Part shown: in pieces, positions 2,108-12,056 of the stretch
How the letters are laid out: each line of letters begins with the position of its first letter
Numbering within the stretch: position 1 is the stretch's first letter
Source of the DNA: Escherichia phage vB_Ec-G1
Strand: one strand, 5' to 3'
DNA length: 64,000 bases
Sequence record: PQ433349.1
Made by a program: the position numbers and the translations under genes
Notes under the pieces: model-generated
The model's database searches: none
What the model saw: the letters and a program-made list of their open reading frames with translations, nothing else
Told to the model about the DNA's origin: nothing

Positions 2108-3049
2108 TTAATAACCTCCTTCAAAAGGCTTTACTACATGTTGATTAGCTTTAAAACGTTCAACATAGTCGTTTTCGCCCATGTTTTCATATAGCTTAAT
2201 AACAACATAAAAGTTTTCCCAAGCATATTCCCTAAACCAACCACTAGTGATGGATGTGCAGACTTTAGATAAAGCCATTATAAAACTTTGCTTAGGGGTT
2301 GGACCTCCGATCTCTCCACCGAAAGGAATTTGTGAACGTTCCAAAGCCAAAACACACGCTTCTTCATAAACACCTAACAGGCGCACATGTTTTGGTTGAG
2401 CAAAAAACTTTTCTTTGCTGGTCATAACTTCACTTCCATCTTTCATATAAGATTTATATGCCGGAGCATCCATTACCGCGATTGCTTCATGGATAGAATC
2501 ATGATCATAAACATACGGAACCTCATCACCTTTAAAAAAGTCTTTACTTTTTACGTTTAAGTTCGGATGAGAGTAAGTGTATGTTTCTTTCTCACGCAAC
2601 TCATAAATACTCTTAAGATTTTCTGGGATCTTTGCGCCCAGTGACCGCATGAAATGAATATCTTTCATAGTTTTAAAGAAGTGAGGACTATCCTTTTTAA
2701 AACGATGACTCATTTTAAGAAGGTAGAGCACATCTAAAGGAGCAACAACATGTCCAGCGTAAGTTCGACGAACATCATCAGAATCTTCACAATAACTAAT
2801 CAAAGCTTCTGTGCTATCTCCTTGAGAAGCAATATCGTATTCCAAATGTGCACCAGCTATCATTTTGACATGGCCTTTGTTTCCTTTACGTTCTACAAGT
2901 TCAACAAACTCCTCTTGAGAGAACATTTTTGATAATTCTTCCCACTCTTGTTCTGTACACAGGTAATCTAAATCTACACAAGGGCGATACAAGTCTTTTC
3001 CCATGTCCATAGCATGAATTTGCAATGCACGGCTACCAATTAACACCAT
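2108..3049 (-). CDS. hypothetical protein; possible Pol-beta-superfamily nucleotidyltransferase
   Basis: 313-aa ORF, GAGGAG SD; N-terminal GS...DLD pattern weakly resembling nucleotidyltransferase signature. Confidence 0.5.
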   Translation of the reverse strand: MVLIGSRALQIHAMDMGKDLYRPCVDLDYLCTEQEWEELSKMFSQEEFVELVERKGNKGHVKMIAGAHLEYDIASQGDSTEALISYCEDSDDVRRTYAGHVVAPLDVLYLLKMSHRFKKDSPHFFKTMKDIHFMRSLGAKIPENLKSIYELREKETYTYSHPNLNVKSKDFFKGDEVPYVYDHDSIHEAIAVMDAPAYKSYMKDGSEVMTSKEKFFAQPKHVRLLGVYEEACVLALERSQIPFGGEIGGPTPKQSFIMALSKVCTSITSGWFREYAWENFYVVIKLYENMGENDYVERFKANQHVVKPFEGGY

Positions 3050-3107
3050 AATATTTCTCCTCTATTGGTTGATAGGTTAAGTTTATCAAGCTTCCAGATT
3101 TCTGTCA

Positions 3108-3131
3108 ATAAAAAACCCGCCGAAGCGGGTT
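3108..3131 (-). terminator. rho-independent terminator (minus strand, UUCG tetraloop)
   Basis: On minus strand CCCGC-ttcg-GCGGG followed by TTTTTT; -35 TTGACA of next promoter directly after. Confidence 0.7.
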
Positions 3132-3139
3132 ATTATTTA

Positions 3140-3412
3140 CTAACACATTGAGGAAGAAGAGATCCAAACACCTCTTGTGGTTAAACCATTTTCATCCAAC
3201 TCTACACCATAATCTTCACAAATGAAATCAATATAGTGATCTGCGGCTGGCGTTCCTGTAGGGTAATAAGTTTCTCCGTTACCGTAGTCACCTATCCAAG
3301 CTTGTTCCTGAAACTGTTCACAAAGTTCTTCGATTTCCTTACGAAACTTTCTTTGTGCTTGTTCCATCTCTTTAACTTTCTTTTTTATCAGCAGTTCGCC
3401 TTCAGACTCCAC
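3140..3412 (-). CDS. small acidic protein, W-x-SSS-C tail family member
   Basis: 90-aa ORF ending ...GVWISSSSMC; followed by UUCG-hairpin terminator. Confidence 0.5.
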   Translation of the reverse strand: MESEGELLIKKKVKEMEQAQRKFRKEIEELCEQFQEQAWIGDYGNGETYYPTGTPAADHYIDFICEDYGVELDENGLTTRGVWISSSSMC

Positions 3413-3954: not shown

Positions 3955-4124
3955 TTTGTTCCAGTATTCTCATTTTCATCTTCTGGATCATAATAGCCAC
4001 CCATCCCATATTCAGGGGAGAAACGGAAACCTTTACCAGTCTCATCTGCTAACTGCTCTGCTTCCGCTAAAGCCTCATAAGCTGCTTTTACGGCTTCTTC
4101 TACTGTTTTAAACTTGGTCGTCAT
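3927..4124 (-). CDS. small acidic protein, W-x-SSS-C tail family member
   Basis: 65-aa ORF ending ...NWHPSSLSC. Confidence 0.45.
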   Translation of the reverse strand: MTTKFKTVEEAVKAAYEALAEAEQLADETGKGFRFSPEYGMGGYYDPEDENENTGTNWHPSSLSC

Positions 4125-4398
4125 AAAATTTCTCCTCTCCTAAAGACATGTTGACATGAAATGCACGATATGTAAATTCGTTGTCCGTTGTGTTTGAATA
4201 AAACTCAAATTGAACAACACCGTCTTGAGAAGACAGATACATGCCAATTTGAACTGTTCCTTCTGGTACCAGGTAAGCATACTCTGGACGTAGTGTTACA
4301 TTGTAAAAATAAAGTTCCCCAACACCCATTTCATCCCAAGCTTCCCAAGCGGTAACGAAGTTACTTTCAAAACTTGTTACTGATCTGAACTCTGCCAT
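4108..4398 (-). CDS. hypothetical protein (96 aa)
   Basis: Minus ORF, operon context. Confidence 0.45.
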   Translation of the reverse strand: MAEFRSVTSFESNFVTAWEAWDEMGVGELYFYNVTLRPEYAYLVPEGTVQIGMYLSSQDGVVQFEFYSNTTDNEFTYRAFHVNMSLGEEKFYDDQV

Positions 4399-4889
4399 AA
4401 AACCTCCTCAATCTTGTAGTTTGACTCCATCTCCAACACATTTCCACGAACGTCTCTCCGAAGAAAGGCATAAGCTTTATTAGGTATTGTAGACTCATAT
4501 TTAACCATATCTGGCACAGCAAAAGATACTACTACTCCTGCTGGGCTTCTGTCAAGAGCCTTATTAATATTTCTAAGGATATCGTTAGCCAAGATTTCTG
4601 CCAATTCTCCAAGAACGGTTTCGGTTATATCTTTATATCCCATTAAGTATTTGTTGATATCTTTCATCTCTGTATTGTTCAGAGTATAATCCAAAGGATA
4701 GAAATTCAAAGCGGAGTCACTTTTATGTGTCCACATGAAATGCACCCGATCCGAGCAGAATCGTAACCCTCTTTGAAGAATATCTTCTACAACAGGCAGA
4801 ATTTCTTTTGTCACATCATTAACCATGTTGTAATCTAAGATTTCTGCCAAGTTTGTTCTTTGTTCACCACGTTTACGTTTAGGAATCAC
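4377..4889 (-). CDS. hypothetical protein (170 aa)
   Basis: Minus ORF, operon context. Confidence 0.5.
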   Translation of the reverse strand: MIPKRKRGEQRTNLAEILDYNMVNDVTKEILPVVEDILQRGLRFCSDRVHFMWTHKSDSALNFYPLDYTLNNTEMKDINKYLMGYKDITETVLGELAEILANDILRNINKALDRSPAGVVVSFAVPDMVKYESTIPNKAYAFLRRDVRGNVLEMESNYKIEEVLWQSSDQ

Positions 4890-7887: not shown

Positions 7888-8123
7888 TAGTCTTCCCAGT
7901 CATTGTCCTCGGTAGAGTGAACCAAAGCTCGCACGATACCACCGTAATCTACTGCCTGATTTGCAGCATGTTCGGCATAAACTTCAATGGCTTTTTTGAA
8001 GAAAAGAGCAGTAGCTGCTTCAATATTATCCATTTCGCCATCTACGTCAGTAGAAAGTGAAAGGTTGAGGCTTTCATCTACTTCATCAAAATCAATAGCC
8101 ACTGTCATAATTAGTTTACCCAT
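7887..8123 (-). CDS. hypothetical acidic protein (78 aa)
   Basis: Small minus ORF, acidic. Confidence 0.4.
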   Translation of the reverse strand: MGKLIMTVAIDFDEVDESLNLSLSTDVDGEMDNIEAATALFFKKAIEVYAEHAANQAVDYGGIVRALVHSTEDNDWED

Positions 8124-8135
8124 AGTTCACACTCC

Positions 8136-8645
8136 TTAAACAAAATAAAATGGTTGAGAGAGGCCCAAACGATTTTTTGGGTCGTATACATACCAAGCGT
8201 ATGCTGTCTTATCTGTTCCACCTGCAACAAACGAAGGCCGTTCTGAAAGGACTATAAGGTTTGTTGGTGGATTCTTTTGATGGAACTCTCGTCGTTTCTT
8301 TGACTCCAAGAAGCCCAACCGAAGAAGATAAATACAAACATCCGCCTCTTTTAAGCTCTTTTCCAAGAACTCCATTGCTAACTTGAATGGAGGATTTGTG
8401 ATTATAATGTCGGGACGATTTTCCCATTCATGACTAAAATAATCTTTACCTTCTTCAAGTTCACAATATTCTGAACCTTCAGGAAAATGGCGATAAATCG
8501 CTTCAGCTTCACCTCTACAAGGTTCTGCAAAAATCCAACCTTCTTCCTTTAGATTTTTGAAATCTATAACACTAAACAAACTGTTGATTGCTTTTTGCGG
8601 TGTCGGATAATAATCGCTCGTTGGGCGATCATAATCTAATGCCAT
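8136..8645 (-). CDS. small DNA N6-adenine (or N4-cytosine) methyltransferase-like protein
   Basis: IITNPPF catalytic motif (NPPF/DPPY class) and upstream DYYPTP. Confidence 0.55.
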   Translation of the reverse strand: MALDYDRPTSDYYPTPQKAINSLFSVIDFKNLKEEGWIFAEPCRGEAEAIYRHFPEGSEYCELEEGKDYFSHEWENRPDIIITNPPFKLAMEFLEKSLKEADVCIYLLRLGFLESKKRREFHQKNPPTNLIVLSERPSFVAGGTDKTAYAWYVYDPKNRLGLSQPFYFV

Positions 8646-9063
8646 CTAAAATCTCCTCTTTTGTAATATTATCCAACTCTTTAAAGGATGAAATCTCGTT
8701 TAATAATCCTATTTGATCAGCCTCTAGAGGATAAGTGTTTTTATCTGTTTTTCTAGACAGAATATCTTCAACAAACTTATCAATAGCCAAAGAAGAATCA
8801 TAAAATTTTAAAAGTTGGTAATCCATAGGAGATATTTTGTCATCTCTTAGAAATATTTCTAACATGTTTTCAGGAGTATCGTGGTTTAGTTTATGTTCAC
8901 CAAAAATATTAACTTCGTAAACATCTTTGCCAAACCAACGTTTTTTCTTTTCAACAGTATAGGTTTTTGCCACCAGACCATCTAAACAGTTTCTTGCCCT
9001 CTTACATGTTTGACGGTAAGAGTGGATAGCGCCTTCAACAAACTTAGCAGGAACTTGTAACAT
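8629..9063 (-). CDS. hypothetical protein (144 aa)
   Basis: Minus ORF. Confidence 0.5.
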   Translation of the reverse strand: MLQVPAKFVEGAIHSYRQTCKRARNCLDGLVAKTYTVEKKKRWFGKDVYEVNIFGEHKLNHDTPENMLEIFLRDDKISPMDYQLLKFYDSSLAIDKFVEDILSRKTDKNTYPLEADQIGLLNEISSFKELDNITKEEILDGIRL

Positions 9064-9108
9064 TATTAATCTCCTATGTTTAAGAAATGCCCCCGAAGGG
9101 GCAGTTTG

Positions 9109-9801
9109 TTAAATAGCGGTTCCTTCGAAATCCGCCACATTTACGAGATTAATATTTTCAGATTTAGAAGTCAAGTTGTTTTCTGCAACAGATTTTTCTT
9201 CAGTATCCGCCTCGTTACCTGCCACGTTACGAGGTTCTTCTTCACCGTAGGGATTACCGAATTTCAAAAGATTGATCAATTCTTCTTTGGAGAAGTTTTC
9301 TAAATCATCGTCTGTTAATTCAATAATCTCATCTTGTTCTTCAACAAATGTTTCACCACCAGAAAAAGCATCTCGCTTTTTAGCTACTTCCATAGCCTGT
9401 TCTGGTGTTGCCCCTGCATCAAGAGCAGCTAAAGCAAAGTCTGACCCGCTTCCTACCGCATAATATTCTTCATCAATCGGATATGCACGTGTTGGGTTGT
9501 TACCTTCGTGCAGGAAAATACGTCCGTCAGGATGAACAACAAGTGCAATAAACTCTTCATCTTCTTTATCTGGATCAGAGTGAATCATCAAACCAGGGAC
9601 AGCATCACGTGCTGCTTCGCACTGTAGATTTTGTTCAAACCATTGAAAGAAAGAAAGCACGGAGGTCAGACGACCAGCACCACCTACAAGGTAATCTCCA
9701 ATTTTTCGGACCTTTTTGAAATTAATAGAATCTACACGTCCACCAAAAGTTACCTTACCGTCACTCAAAATCTTATTTTTGGTTGCAATAATTGTCGTCA
9801 C
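9109..9801 (-). CDS. HslV-like Ntn-hydrolase peptidase with acidic C-terminal extension
   Basis: N-terminus MTTIIA...DG...VTFGG, KKVRK...GGAG and AVGSGSDFALAA align with HslV core; no HslU-like ATPase adjacent. Confidence 0.8.
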   Translation of the reverse strand: MTTIIATKNKILSDGKVTFGGRVDSINFKKVRKIGDYLVGGAGRLTSVLSFFQWFEQNLQCEAARDAVPGLMIHSDPDKEDEEFIALVVHPDGRIFLHEGNNPTRAYPIDEEYYAVGSGSDFALAALDAGATPEQAMEVAKKRDAFSGGETFVEEQDEIIELTDDDLENFSKEELINLLKFGNPYGEEEPRNVAGNEADTEEKSVAENNLTSKSENINLVNVADFEGTAI

Positions 9802-10304
9802 TATTCTTCCTCCTCTGTTAATGTTTTAAGAACCGCTTTCCCGCCATTCACATATTTGCAGATGTATTCTATCGCACGTAGTGTCTCTTTGTCAACAAAA
9901 ATTTGATCAGACGTTGCGAGCGGGTTATTAAGAAGATCACTGCAATCACGAACAAGCAGTGCTTTCTTATTAAACAAATTACTTAAGAACAGTAACTTCG
10001 CCTCTTCTTCTGTTATGTGCAGAAGGCTAGGATCGGAGCCAGCTATTCCTATTATACAATCAAACAAGCTTTCTTTACTATCAGAAAGTTCTTGAAAATG
10101 GTTTAAAAGCCAATCTTCTCCTAGACACCAACATTTAAACATTTCCAGTTTATCTCGGAGGGTCATATTCTCTAAAGTAAGAGCAATCTCTTTTTCAATA
10201 TGGTTTACACAAATTTGACGAAATTCGTTAGGTTTTACGAGTCCCGTTTGATAGCACTCATCTATACCGCTTCTTCCGATAGCTATTGTTGCTACACCCA
10301 TCAA
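9801..10304 (-). CDS. hypothetical protein (167 aa)
   Basis: Minus ORF. Confidence 0.5.
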   Translation of the reverse strand: MMGVATIAIGRSGIDECYQTGLVKPNEFRQICVNHIEKEIALTLENMTLRDKLEMFKCWCLGEDWLLNHFQELSDSKESLFDCIIGIAGSDPSLLHITEEEAKLLFLSNLFNKKALLVRDCSDLLNNPLATSDQIFVDKETLRAIEYICKYVNGGKAVLKTLTEEEE

Positions 10305-10336
10305 TCCTCCTTATAAATGGCTTCCCTGCCATGTTA

Positions 10337-11095
10337 TTAAATAAACACTTCAGTAATCAGTTTAGACAAACGTCCACGTTTATTATCGTCCGTTGTCAGT
10401 TCAACGTATCCAATAAAATCTACAATTGGCTCACGAACACCCTCTTCATTTTCTGGATACAAAAGTTCCAAAATTTGATGCAGACCATTGCTACGTTTTT
10501 TAATTGCATATGTCTGGCGAACATCGCCTAATACAATAACATGCGTATTAATACCTGCACGTTCAATAAGAAGTTTAAGTGTTTCTGTTGACATAAGTTG
10601 TGCTTCGTCAATAATGACGATTGTATTATCCAGGGTAGCCCCCAACAAATAGTTAGGAATATTCAATTCGATCTTACCTGATCCAATATCGTTTTCCAAT
10701 TTGTTGGCTGTCATGAATTGCTGGAAAATACGTTTTGTAGATTCATAGTGTGCTGCTAGTTTATCTGTTTTATCCCCAGACAAGAAACCAATCTGGTCAT
10801 CTCCGACTTCAGTAGGGTTCTTAATAAAAAGTAGTTTACGGAAGTCTCCTGAACGAAGCATCTGCAAAGCTTTCCATAAAGCAACAGAGGTTTTACCAGT
10901 CCCTGCCGGAGCATTTACAACAGTCAGATCATTCCAAATCATGCTTTGAACAATCTTATTTTGGTCCCCTTCAGGCATAAATTCATCTAAACGGTAATCG
11001 TCATTACCTACCGCTTTTGCTGCATAACGGCTTTCAATCTTTGCTGAATTAGCCAGTTTCTGCCGTTGTGTTTTAGCTGCGGTTTTATTTCCCAT
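10337..11095 (-). CDS. phoH: PhoH-like ATPase
   Basis: Walker A GTGKT, IIDEAQ Walker B, PhoH-like overall pattern; start refined to ATG 11095 with AAGGAG SD. Confidence 0.9.
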   Translation of the reverse strand: MGNKTAAKTQRQKLANSAKIESRYAAKAVGNDDYRLDEFMPEGDQNKIVQSMIWNDLTVVNAPAGTGKTSVALWKALQMLRSGDFRKLLFIKNPTEVGDDQIGFLSGDKTDKLAAHYESTKRIFQQFMTANKLENDIGSGKIELNIPNYLLGATLDNTIVIIDEAQLMSTETLKLLIERAGINTHVIVLGDVRQTYAIKKRSNGLHQILELLYPENEEGVREPIVDFIGYVELTTDDNKRGRLSKLITEVFI

Positions 11096-11109
11096 AGTAG
11101 CACTCCTTT

Positions 11110-11128
11110 TAGAAGGGGCCGAAGCCCC
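11110..11128 (-). promoter_or_regulatory. intergenic UUCG-tetraloop hairpin between lysozyme and phoH
   Basis: On minus strand AGGGGC-ttcg-GCCCCT, no U-run; sits just upstream of phoH SD. Confidence 0.45.
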
Positions 11129-11132
11129 TTTA

Positions 11133-11633
11133 TTAGTTGTAAGCATCTAAAGTTCCAGAAGTCAGAACTTTAATTACTCGTTCAGCACGGTTTGGCGTCT
11201 GGCTATACCATCGGCTTTTACGCATGTTTTTACCTGCTTGAGTATAATATGCATTGCTGATTAAAGTCAAGCTATTTTGAAACCCTTCAGCACCTTTTAA
11301 CCCCAACTGGAAAACCATGTTGATTATTCCCAATTTACGAGTATCACTAACCTTATCATAGATTGGTGATAAGATAGTACTGTTTTTTATGTCTCTCTTC
11401 ACTTTTGCAACATCGTCAGCAAAGATTTGACGGGCTTCTTTTTCTGTGATAACTCCATTAGTCTTACGACCAAGAAGATTATCTAAGATTTGAATAGCCT
11501 TTGCTTTATCTTTTATTTTAGTCAGAAGGTGTCCTATGCCGACTGTCCAATAACCAAGATGGTCTTGATAAACAGTAAGCTTCAGTCCTTCATCGACTCG
11601 TAGCATATCAAACTCATCTACTACTTTAGCCAT
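11133..11633 (-). CDS. e: T4-type lysozyme (endolysin, muramidase)
   Basis: Strong similarity to T4 gene e lysozyme: MLRVDEGLKL..YTIGIGHLLTK..GVIT..INMVFQ..SRWYSQTPNRA. Confidence 0.9.
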   Translation of the reverse strand: MAKVVDEFDMLRVDEGLKLTVYQDHLGYWTVGIGHLLTKIKDKAKAIQILDNLLGRKTNGVITEKEARQIFADDVAKVKRDIKNSTILSPIYDKVSDTRKLGIINMVFQLGLKGAEGFQNSLTLISNAYYTQAGKNMRKSRWYSQTPNRAERVIKVLTSGTLDAYN

Positions 11634-11640
11634 TTACTTC

Positions 11641-11790
11641 CTATTCGTCGTCTCCTACTCCGTGATCCAACTCGTTAAACAACAGATGTTCTGGAGAAGT
11701 TTCACGTTTTGGTTTCGTTTTCTTTATGTTGGACTTCAGCTCATTTGCCAAAGCACGAGAAAAGATCTTACGTTTCTGTTTACTTTTCAT
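11641..11790 (-). CDS. small basic protein (49 aa)
   Basis: Unlisted short ORF MKSKQKRK... with GGAG SD; fills intergenic gap. Confidence 0.35.
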   Translation of the reverse strand: MKSKQKRKIFSRALANELKSNIKKTKPKRETSPEHLLFNELDHGVGDDE

Positions 11791-11795
11791 AATTG

Positions 11796-12056
11796 TTACT
11801 CCGCAATTTGAGCCATGAGATCACGCAGTTCGGTAAAACCGCCTACGTATGTTACCTCCCCGTTCACTTCAGACAGAATTTGTGGAAATGTGCGTGGAGG
11901 AACTCCGGTAAGATCAACAACTGTTTTAGTCATTGATTCTAAATCATAGTCTTGGTCAAGACTTAAATATTCAAACTGTTTATTGCGCATAGTCAATAGT
12001 TGTTTTGACATTTCACAAAATTGACAGTTAGGTTTACCAAAAATTACAAATTCCAT
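11796..12056 (-). CDS. glutaredoxin/NrdC-like redoxin
   Basis: CQFC active-site CxxC near N-terminus, GGF near C-terminus; adjacent to RNR genes. Confidence 0.75.
   Translation of the reverse strand: MEFVIFGKPNCQFCEMSKQLLTMRNKQFEYLSLDQDYDLESMTKTVVDLTGVPPRTFPQILSEVNGEVTYVGGFTELRDLMAQIAE

Follow-up and report, generated by a model that had tools for sequence, protein, structure and literature searches.

A gene on the minus strand of Escherichia phage vB_Ec-G1 (sequence record PQ433349.1), at positions 9109-9801 of the 64,000-nucleotide stretch that was analyzed and is called the window here, encodes an HslV-like protein with a C-terminal extension. The reading we favor, at a probability of about one half, is that this protein is an N-terminal-threonine peptidase with full catalytic competence, that it falls in the proteasome-beta/HslV (T1) superfamily, that it belongs to a compact phage clade, and that its regulation is independent of HslU. 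A self-compartmentalized protease is normally of no use unless an unfoldase or an activator serves it. Retention of the catalytic center together with loss of the HslU-docking face in thousands of compact peptidases, which among sequenced isolates occur in phages only, therefore implies a new mode of activation or a new partner.

Superfamily membership and catalytic residues

By sequence and predicted fold, the peptidase is a member of the proteasome-beta/HslV superfamily (MEROPS T1, PF00227), and its homology to HslV lies far beyond chance. A preliminary description of this DNA had aligned the N-terminal 160 residues with the N-terminal nucleophile (Ntn) hydrolase core of HslV and had proposed hidden Markov model searches as a check. 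Those searches agree with it: residues 1-229 match positions 14-247 of the 277-position profile of PHROG 1040, named 'peptidase HslV family', at E 9.7e-64, and the Pfam Proteasome profile PF00227 gives 25.6 bits, a marginal match above its gathering cut-off of 22.4. When the PDB was searched with phmmer, the top matches were all HslV, with the Thermotoga maritima protein at E 5e-9 and that of E. coli at about 3e-5. An AlphaFold2 (AF2) model was made from an alignment of 27 relatives. It has the proteasome-type alpha-beta-beta-alpha Ntn-hydrolase fold by which membership of the superfamily is recognized, with a block-mean predicted local distance difference test (pLDDT) score of about 88-98 over the core (residues 1-160) and of 66-74 in the loop at residues 61-80. 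A Foldseek search with this model ranked HslV first.

The catalytic residues are invariant among the 27 relatives. The Thr directly after the initiator Met and the GGAG and GSGS segments, all remarked on in the preliminary description, are indeed present: the product begins MTTII with an invariant Thr2, GGAG occupies residues 40-43 and GSGS residues 117-120. When 26 representatives spanning the family were aligned with E. coli HslV, Thr2, Asp14, Lys30, Gly43, Gly117 and Gly119 proved identical in all 26 and in the E. coli protein, and position 118 was Ser or Thr. The catalytic center is intact, and the peptidase has been under selection over a long period. The HslV equivalents in this alignment are Thr1, Asp17, Lys33, Gly48 and Ser124-Gly125. 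In E. coli HslV, methionine aminopeptidase exposes the Thr nucleophile and no propeptide is involved. As Thr adjoins Met in the phage protein, the same enzyme should expose its nucleophile in the same way.

Divergence from HslV and loss of the HslU-docking face

Against the NCBIfam HslV equivalog models NF003964 and TIGR03692, the peptidase reaches 32.2 and 31.4 bits; the respective thresholds lie at 137 and 157.75, and E. coli HslV attains 302 and 288 bits. Judged by its sequence, it is not an HslV orthologue; it is a divergent variant in a clade of compact relatives. The alignment shows two segments of E. coli HslV missing throughout the family, residues ~75-88 (ELAKDWRTDRMLRK), which form H2 (the second apical helix) along with the pore region, and residues ~134-142. 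In the AF2 model, a long helix (residues 45-67) is followed by coil (residues 68-83), a short acidic loop of pLDDT 66-74, at the place where HslV has H2; a single apical helix is thus modeled and the second is not predicted.

The pocket that receives HslU's C-terminal tail is lined in HslV by F54, F57, Q114, A79 and K80 (PMC6429459). Across the 26 representatives, F54 and Q114 are each retained in one, the F57 position is hydrophobic throughout, and the segment bearing A79, K80, R83, R86 and L88 is deleted in all. The K80 column is gapped in every representative and the A79 column in 25 of 26, the one remaining row (P0197) having Ser there. Lys occupies the K28 position in the compared HslVs of E. 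coli, T. maritima and B. subtilis and in none of the 26 representatives; the window protein has Ser there, with a conserved Asp just before it. HslV K28 reportedly binds the terminal carboxylate of the HslU C-terminus, an observation attributed to Sousa et al. in 2000. Among the six pocket residues considered (K28, F54, F57, A79, K80 and Q114), the Phe57 counterpart alone is kept in the window protein, which also retains the equivalents of R35 and E61. HslV proper is recognized by a docking groove together with apical helices H1 and H2, a combination that the peptidase family lacks in the alignment. Because apical helix H2, the pore segment and the residues of the HslU C-tail pocket are absent, canonical docking to HslU is most likely not used.

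The preliminary description had called the peptidase an orphan, with no HslU-like AAA+ partner in the window, and this was borne out by a tblastn search of the window with E. coli HslU, which gave no match (best E 7.4). HslU/ClpX-like matches occur in 164 of 50,697 phage records, mostly from Erwinia jumbo phages and four from 'Escherichia' phages. Within the same records, no HslU/ClpX-like gene was found in the phAPEC8-like lineage, more than 100 records of which carry the peptidase.

It had also been proposed that the phage protein pairs with host HslU and redirects proteolysis. In such a hijack, phage rings would dock onto host HslU hexamers to give an ATP-dependent protease of phage-chosen specificity, with the C-terminal tail or hairpin aiding docking or substrate choice. 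HslV is the nearest solved relative, an AAA+ gene of the phage's own is absent from both the window and the lineage searches, all known hosts are Proteobacteria with HslUV, and the window protein has preserved the counterparts of R35, F57 and E61. Against this stand the deletion of H2 and the pore segment, the lack of family-wide conservation at the K28, F54, A79, K80 and Q114 equivalents, and scores far under the HslV equivalog thresholds. Moreover, the peptidase is no nearer to gamma-proteobacterial HslV than to Thermotoga HslV, and it shows no sign of co-adaptation to a host partner. Given the lost docking face and the low equivalog scores, a hijack of host HslU is possible but unlikely, and it could operate only through a non-canonical HslU interface, for which the odds appear similarly low.

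The C-terminal extension

The preliminary description had characterized the roughly 70 residues after the core as highly acidic. Their acidity is confirmed, since residues 161-230 contain 18 Asp/Glu against 5 Lys/Arg (net charge -13). The extension is not uniform, however: its first part is a conserved helical hairpin, and the acidic tail proper follows it (Table 1). The hairpin helices have block-mean pLDDT values of 84-88 in the AF2 model. The hairpin was found in 35 aligned relatives, with its motif conserved down to 35-40% identity, and relatives of 186-200 residues stop right after it. In the 35 tailed relatives, the region beyond the hairpin spans 3 to 196 residues and is acidic in nearly every case, the net charge having a median of -7.5.

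Within PHROG 1040 as a whole, the extension may be missing (Caulobacter, Rhizobium and 'mini' members), may consist of the hairpin only, or may combine the hairpin with long acidic tails and extra domains. Many longer relatives (P0072, P0133, P0137, P0139, P0146, P0153 and P0164) end in a HeH/Rho_N-like motif, LGVKxxxxxSKxxLxxKL, for which the best Pfam Rho_N score is 15 bits, under the cut-off of 24.9, and in relatives P0061-P0063 there is a Cys-rich CxH...CxxC insert; both features are absent from the window protein. The extra C-terminal domains of the longer relatives matched no Pfam family. This variety suggests that the tail may be a platform for variable targeting modules. Two other interpretations of the window tail were rejected. 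Its likeness to the HslU C-terminus (EDLSRFIL against DDLENFSK), which would make it a mimic, falls at poorly conserved positions, the conserved part being [ST]KEELhxLL, and an SAP/HeH/Rho_N motif was discarded as the window tail has no Pfam match.

Gene structure and translation signals

The interval 9109-9801 given in the preliminary description is right by translation of the open reading frame (ORF), and the strand was absent from that account. The sole long ORF across the interval lies on the minus strand, and its product starts MTTIIATKNK; the plus-strand translation is riddled with stops. The GTG at 9801 is taken as the true start because it is preceded by the strong Shine-Dalgarno sequence GAGGAGG, because it shares one base with the TAG stop of the upstream 166-residue ORF, because the MTTI N-terminus is invariant among relatives, and because E. 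coli hslV likewise starts with GTG. Several GenBank records, such as that of vB_EcoM-Ro121c4YLVW (P0023, 159 aa), instead choose an internal ATG, Met72 (9109-9588 in the window). That annotation drops the Thr nucleophile, Asp14 and Lys30, and the GTG at 9801 with its Shine-Dalgarno sequence is the better start. A near-consensus sigma-70-like promoter (TTGACA-18-TAGAAT, 11/12) lies at 9866-9895 on the minus strand, within the 3' end of the 166-residue ORF and roughly 65 nt ahead of the peptidase GTG; the case for it is no more than a match to the consensus.

Table 1. Coordinates of the peptidase gene, its protein regions and adjacent features in the window.
Feature	Position	Strand	Remarks
HslV-like N-terminal-threonine peptidase coding sequence	9109..9801	-	230 aa; GTG start at 9801-9799, TAA stop at 9111-9109
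Ntn-hydrolase core, aa 1-160	9322..9801	-	Catalytic set Thr2 (Thr1 once Met is removed), Asp14, Lys30, Gly43, Ser118-Gly119
Conserved C-terminal helical hairpin, aa 161-189	9235..9321	-	Motif ELTxExLxxF[ST]KEELhxLLxFG; AF2 helices 164-169 and 172-181
Variable disordered acidic tail, aa 190-230	9112..9234	-	pLDDT ~40; sequence unconserved
GC-rich stem-loop TGCCCCTTCGGGGGCA, then TTTCTT	9088..9103	-	5 nt past the peptidase stop; terminator-like; consensus match only
Shine-Dalgarno GAGGAGG	9809..9815	-	7 nt ahead of the peptidase GTG, within the 3' end of the 166-aa ORF
166-aa ORF (phrog_14834, phAPEC8 gp174)	9801..10301	-	Translationally coupled to the peptidase; candidate cofactor or regulator
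PhoH-like P-loop ATPase gene	10337..11095	-	Pfam PhoH E 1e-36; Shine-Dalgarno AAGGAG and ATG at 11095

Neighboring genes and a possible multi-part machine

The genes for the PhoH-like ATPase, the 166-residue protein and the peptidase look like one transcription unit with PhoH first, since PhoH has its own Shine-Dalgarno sequence and start and is preceded by a stem-loop (11112-11131), and a terminator-like stem-loop follows the peptidase. The 166-residue protein was modeled as an all-alpha structure containing two short strands; no fold relative could be detected for it, and it has no match in Pfam, NCBIfam or PADLOC. Its family is narrow (41 clusters). At all 23 examined loci with a peptidase at least 40% identical to that of the window, a homologue of the 166-residue protein (hmmsearch E 1e-30 to 1e-89) stands directly upstream, with spacing from a 4-nt overlap to a 9-nt gap. 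These 23 comprise loci on viral contigs, three contigs from metagenomes, and the records of phAPEC8 and of intact VEcB. The order ribonucleotide reductase, glutaredoxin, lysozyme, PhoH, 166-residue ORF, peptidase is kept at all loci of the tailed clade, and the downstream genes vary. On one metagenomic phage contig (L050), a glycoside hydrolase family 19 enzyme (4124-4672) replaces the T4-type lysozyme upstream of PhoH, with PhoH, the ORF and the peptidase kept. In Vibrio and Aeromonas phages with peptidases 34-38% identical, PhoH lies 0.3-3 kb upstream. ORFs of about 150 residues take the equivalent position in Vibrio phage VnaP and in the Aeromonas phages. Their homology to the 166-residue protein could not be demonstrated (BLASTP E 0.008 over 23 residues; hmmsearch E 1.3; hhalign P 0.03-0.04 and 0.2-0.3).

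A natural deletion bears on the same block. The reference genome of phage VEcB (NC_052663.1 / MT932211) encodes, at 2501-3304, gp055, a 267-residue protein annotated 'peptidase HslV family' that is an in-frame fusion in which PhoH residues 1-112 are followed by the peptidase from its residue ~65 onward. The deletion of about 1.18 kb removes the C-terminal half of PhoH, the 166-residue ORF and the N-terminus of the peptidase, including Thr1, Asp and Lys; a second VEcB assembly (OZ035773.1) is intact and 1183 bp longer. The three-gene block is therefore dispensable for laboratory propagation, and the peptidase is an accessory function, dispensable for plaque formation.

These gene-order data raise the possibility that the peptidase is one part of a phage-encoded machine in which the 166-residue protein would serve as a non-ATPase activator, as a cap or as a substrate adaptor, and in which the PhoH-like ATPase might take part as well. 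Consistent with this proposal, the 166-residue ORF is translationally coupled to the peptidase through a 1-nt overlap and stays directly upstream of it at the loci described above. The order of PhoH, ORF and peptidase persists despite changing downstream genes and lysozyme type, and the proximity of PhoH extends to the Vibrio and Aeromonas phages. The three genes are bracketed by stem-loops, and the VEcB deletion takes parts of all three. Nevertheless, the linkage may reflect inheritance and not function, because the whole block from ribonucleotide reductase to peptidase is syntenic and simple vertical descent may explain it. PhoH is an SF1-helicase-like RNA-directed ATPase and not a protein unfoldase (PMC7824862), and it is common in phages that lack this peptidase. 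Furthermore, the ~150-residue ORFs of the distant phages are not detectably homologous to the 166-residue protein, one locus (L025) has no such ORF, and no PhoH lies near the tail-less relatives in Caulobacter phages. On balance, a multi-part machine of this composition appears quite improbable. The broader idea of a virus-specific, HslU-independent compartmental protease, built from the tailed peptidase and the 166-residue protein and possibly PhoH, would amount to a 'mini-proteasome' with a new regulator or adaptor; we regard it as distinctly unlikely.

The same-strand surroundings include two orphan DNA methyltransferase genes, a NinI-like phosphatase gene, a DprA-like gene and a dTDP-rhamnose biosynthesis cluster; the coordinates given for these surroundings are 8136-8645 (minus strand) in the window and, for phAPEC8 gp194, 1043-1726 at locus L002. 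The surroundings look like an early or accessory gene region, and since its same-strand neighbors serve nucleotide metabolism and DNA modification, the peptidase is probably expressed early or in the middle phase.

Phage lineage and distribution of the family

Over the peptidase region, the DNA shares 99.3-99.7% identity with Escherichia phages of the phAPEC8 type (Phapecoctavirus, Stephanstirmvirinae). The phAPEC8 counterpart in RefSeq (G377_gp175 / YP_007348462), 99% identical to the window protein, is labeled 'peptidase HslV family'; the identification of the gene as HslV-like is thus a pre-existing database annotation and is not new. A literature search for work on the function of phage HslV-like proteins yielded none, and genome notes offered only comments on the occurrence of HslV in the absence of HslU. 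Window positions 8000-12000 are also matched by records named 'Campylobacter phage' B15 (MG065650.1, 99.4% DNA identity to the window), C3 (MG065656.1) and A110a (MG065689.1), whose 'Campylobacter' host labels look questionable.

The relatives recovered by a family profile search over 1.84 billion representatives number 6865 at E<=1e-3, 1326 at E<=1e-10 and 57 at E<=1e-30, and they split into a tailed class of 180-350 residues and a large 'mini' class of 134-165 residues, which is below the size of bacterial HslV. Among sequenced isolates, the compact clade occurs in phages only. An argument from host range, which would turn on finding the family in a phage of an HslU-less host, proved uninformative, as the isolate matches all come from phages of Proteobacteria. 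On Aeromonas phage contigs L023 and L024 (5432-5983), the gene immediately upstream of the one for the tailed HslV-like protein encodes a tail-less Ntn paralogue of 183 residues (MTCIIALRD...). This paralogue matches E. coli HslV by BLASTP at E 4e-6, its Pfam Proteasome score is below threshold, and its position hints at hetero-oligomeric rings in those Aeromonas phages. The window holds no counterpart of this paralogue.

Proposed mode of action and remaining alternatives

If the peptidase is active and independent of HslU, host methionine aminopeptidase would remove Met and expose Thr1, with no propeptide required. Thr1 would then act with the residues equivalent in the alignment to the HslV catalytic set, namely Asp14, Lys30, Gly43 and Ser118-Gly119. 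By homology, the subunits would probably assemble into ring-shaped oligomers with the active sites inside. Canonical docking to HslU, the elements for which are absent from alignment and model, would most likely play no part in its function. Regulation and substrate delivery could instead depend on the hairpin, the acidic disordered tail and the coupled 166-residue protein, a suggestion that draws on their co-conservation. The most plausible role would be the degradation of unfolded or specific host or phage proteins or peptides in the infected cytoplasm during takeover.

Several points weigh against an HslU-independent peptidase. HslV on its own, with no activator bound, cleaves peptides poorly, and the phage peptidase therefore probably needs some activator as well. 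The AF2 confidence in the loop that replaces H2 is moderate (pLDDT 66-74). The link to the 166-residue ORF is one of gene order in a vertically inherited block, and in phages that are more distant its place is taken by a non-homologous ORF or is empty. The phage isolates that carry the family all infect Proteobacteria, which possess HslU, and this is compatible with HslU dependence. Finally, the literature provided biochemical data for no family member.

Two further alternatives can be set beside the HslU-independent peptidase. The fold might serve another amide-bond reaction, such as that of a small-molecule amidase or a connectase-like ligase, and a non-proteolytic Ntn enzyme of this kind has a slight probability. 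The decoy proposed in the preliminary description, in which the protein would tie up the host's HslU (or poison its HslV rings) and shield phage proteins from HslUV with proteolysis irrelevant, would suit an orphan HslV-like protein in a phage and the fact that HslUV degrades some regulatory proteins, but it is hardly credible, because every catalytic residue, needless for a decoy, is invariant across a family of thousands and the HslU-docking elements it would need are the ones missing.

The practical value of the finding is limited, given that the gene is already annotated and accessory. Nonetheless, the substrates of these peptidases would reveal how large lytic phages reshape the host proteome, and the phage enzymes could provide a minimal model for activator-independent proteasome-type proteolysis.

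Comparison with known systems

The phage protein belongs to PHROG 1040, together with phAPEC8 gp175, phi92 gp058, Caulobacter phage Karma gp160 and Vibrio phage VnaP_091, and the name of that family is annotation-only. It shares 26-28% identity with bacterial HslV (ClpQ) of E. coli, H. influenzae and T. maritima (PDB 1NED, 1G3I and 1M4Y). Unlike these proteins, it carries a 70-residue C-terminal extension, and it lacks both the H2 and pore segment (~75-88) and the ~134-142 segment that they possess, as well as an adjacent hslU. HslV proper is a dodecamer built of two stacked hexameric rings, and HslU and ATP stimulate its activity. The beta subunits of the 20S proteasome need alpha rings and usually propeptides; the phage protein has a smaller core and its own C-terminal hairpin and tail. 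BPH and Anbu, the stand-alone bacterial homologues, are ~185-230 residues long and have both apical helices; compared with them too, the phage core is smaller and is followed by a hairpin and tail of its own.
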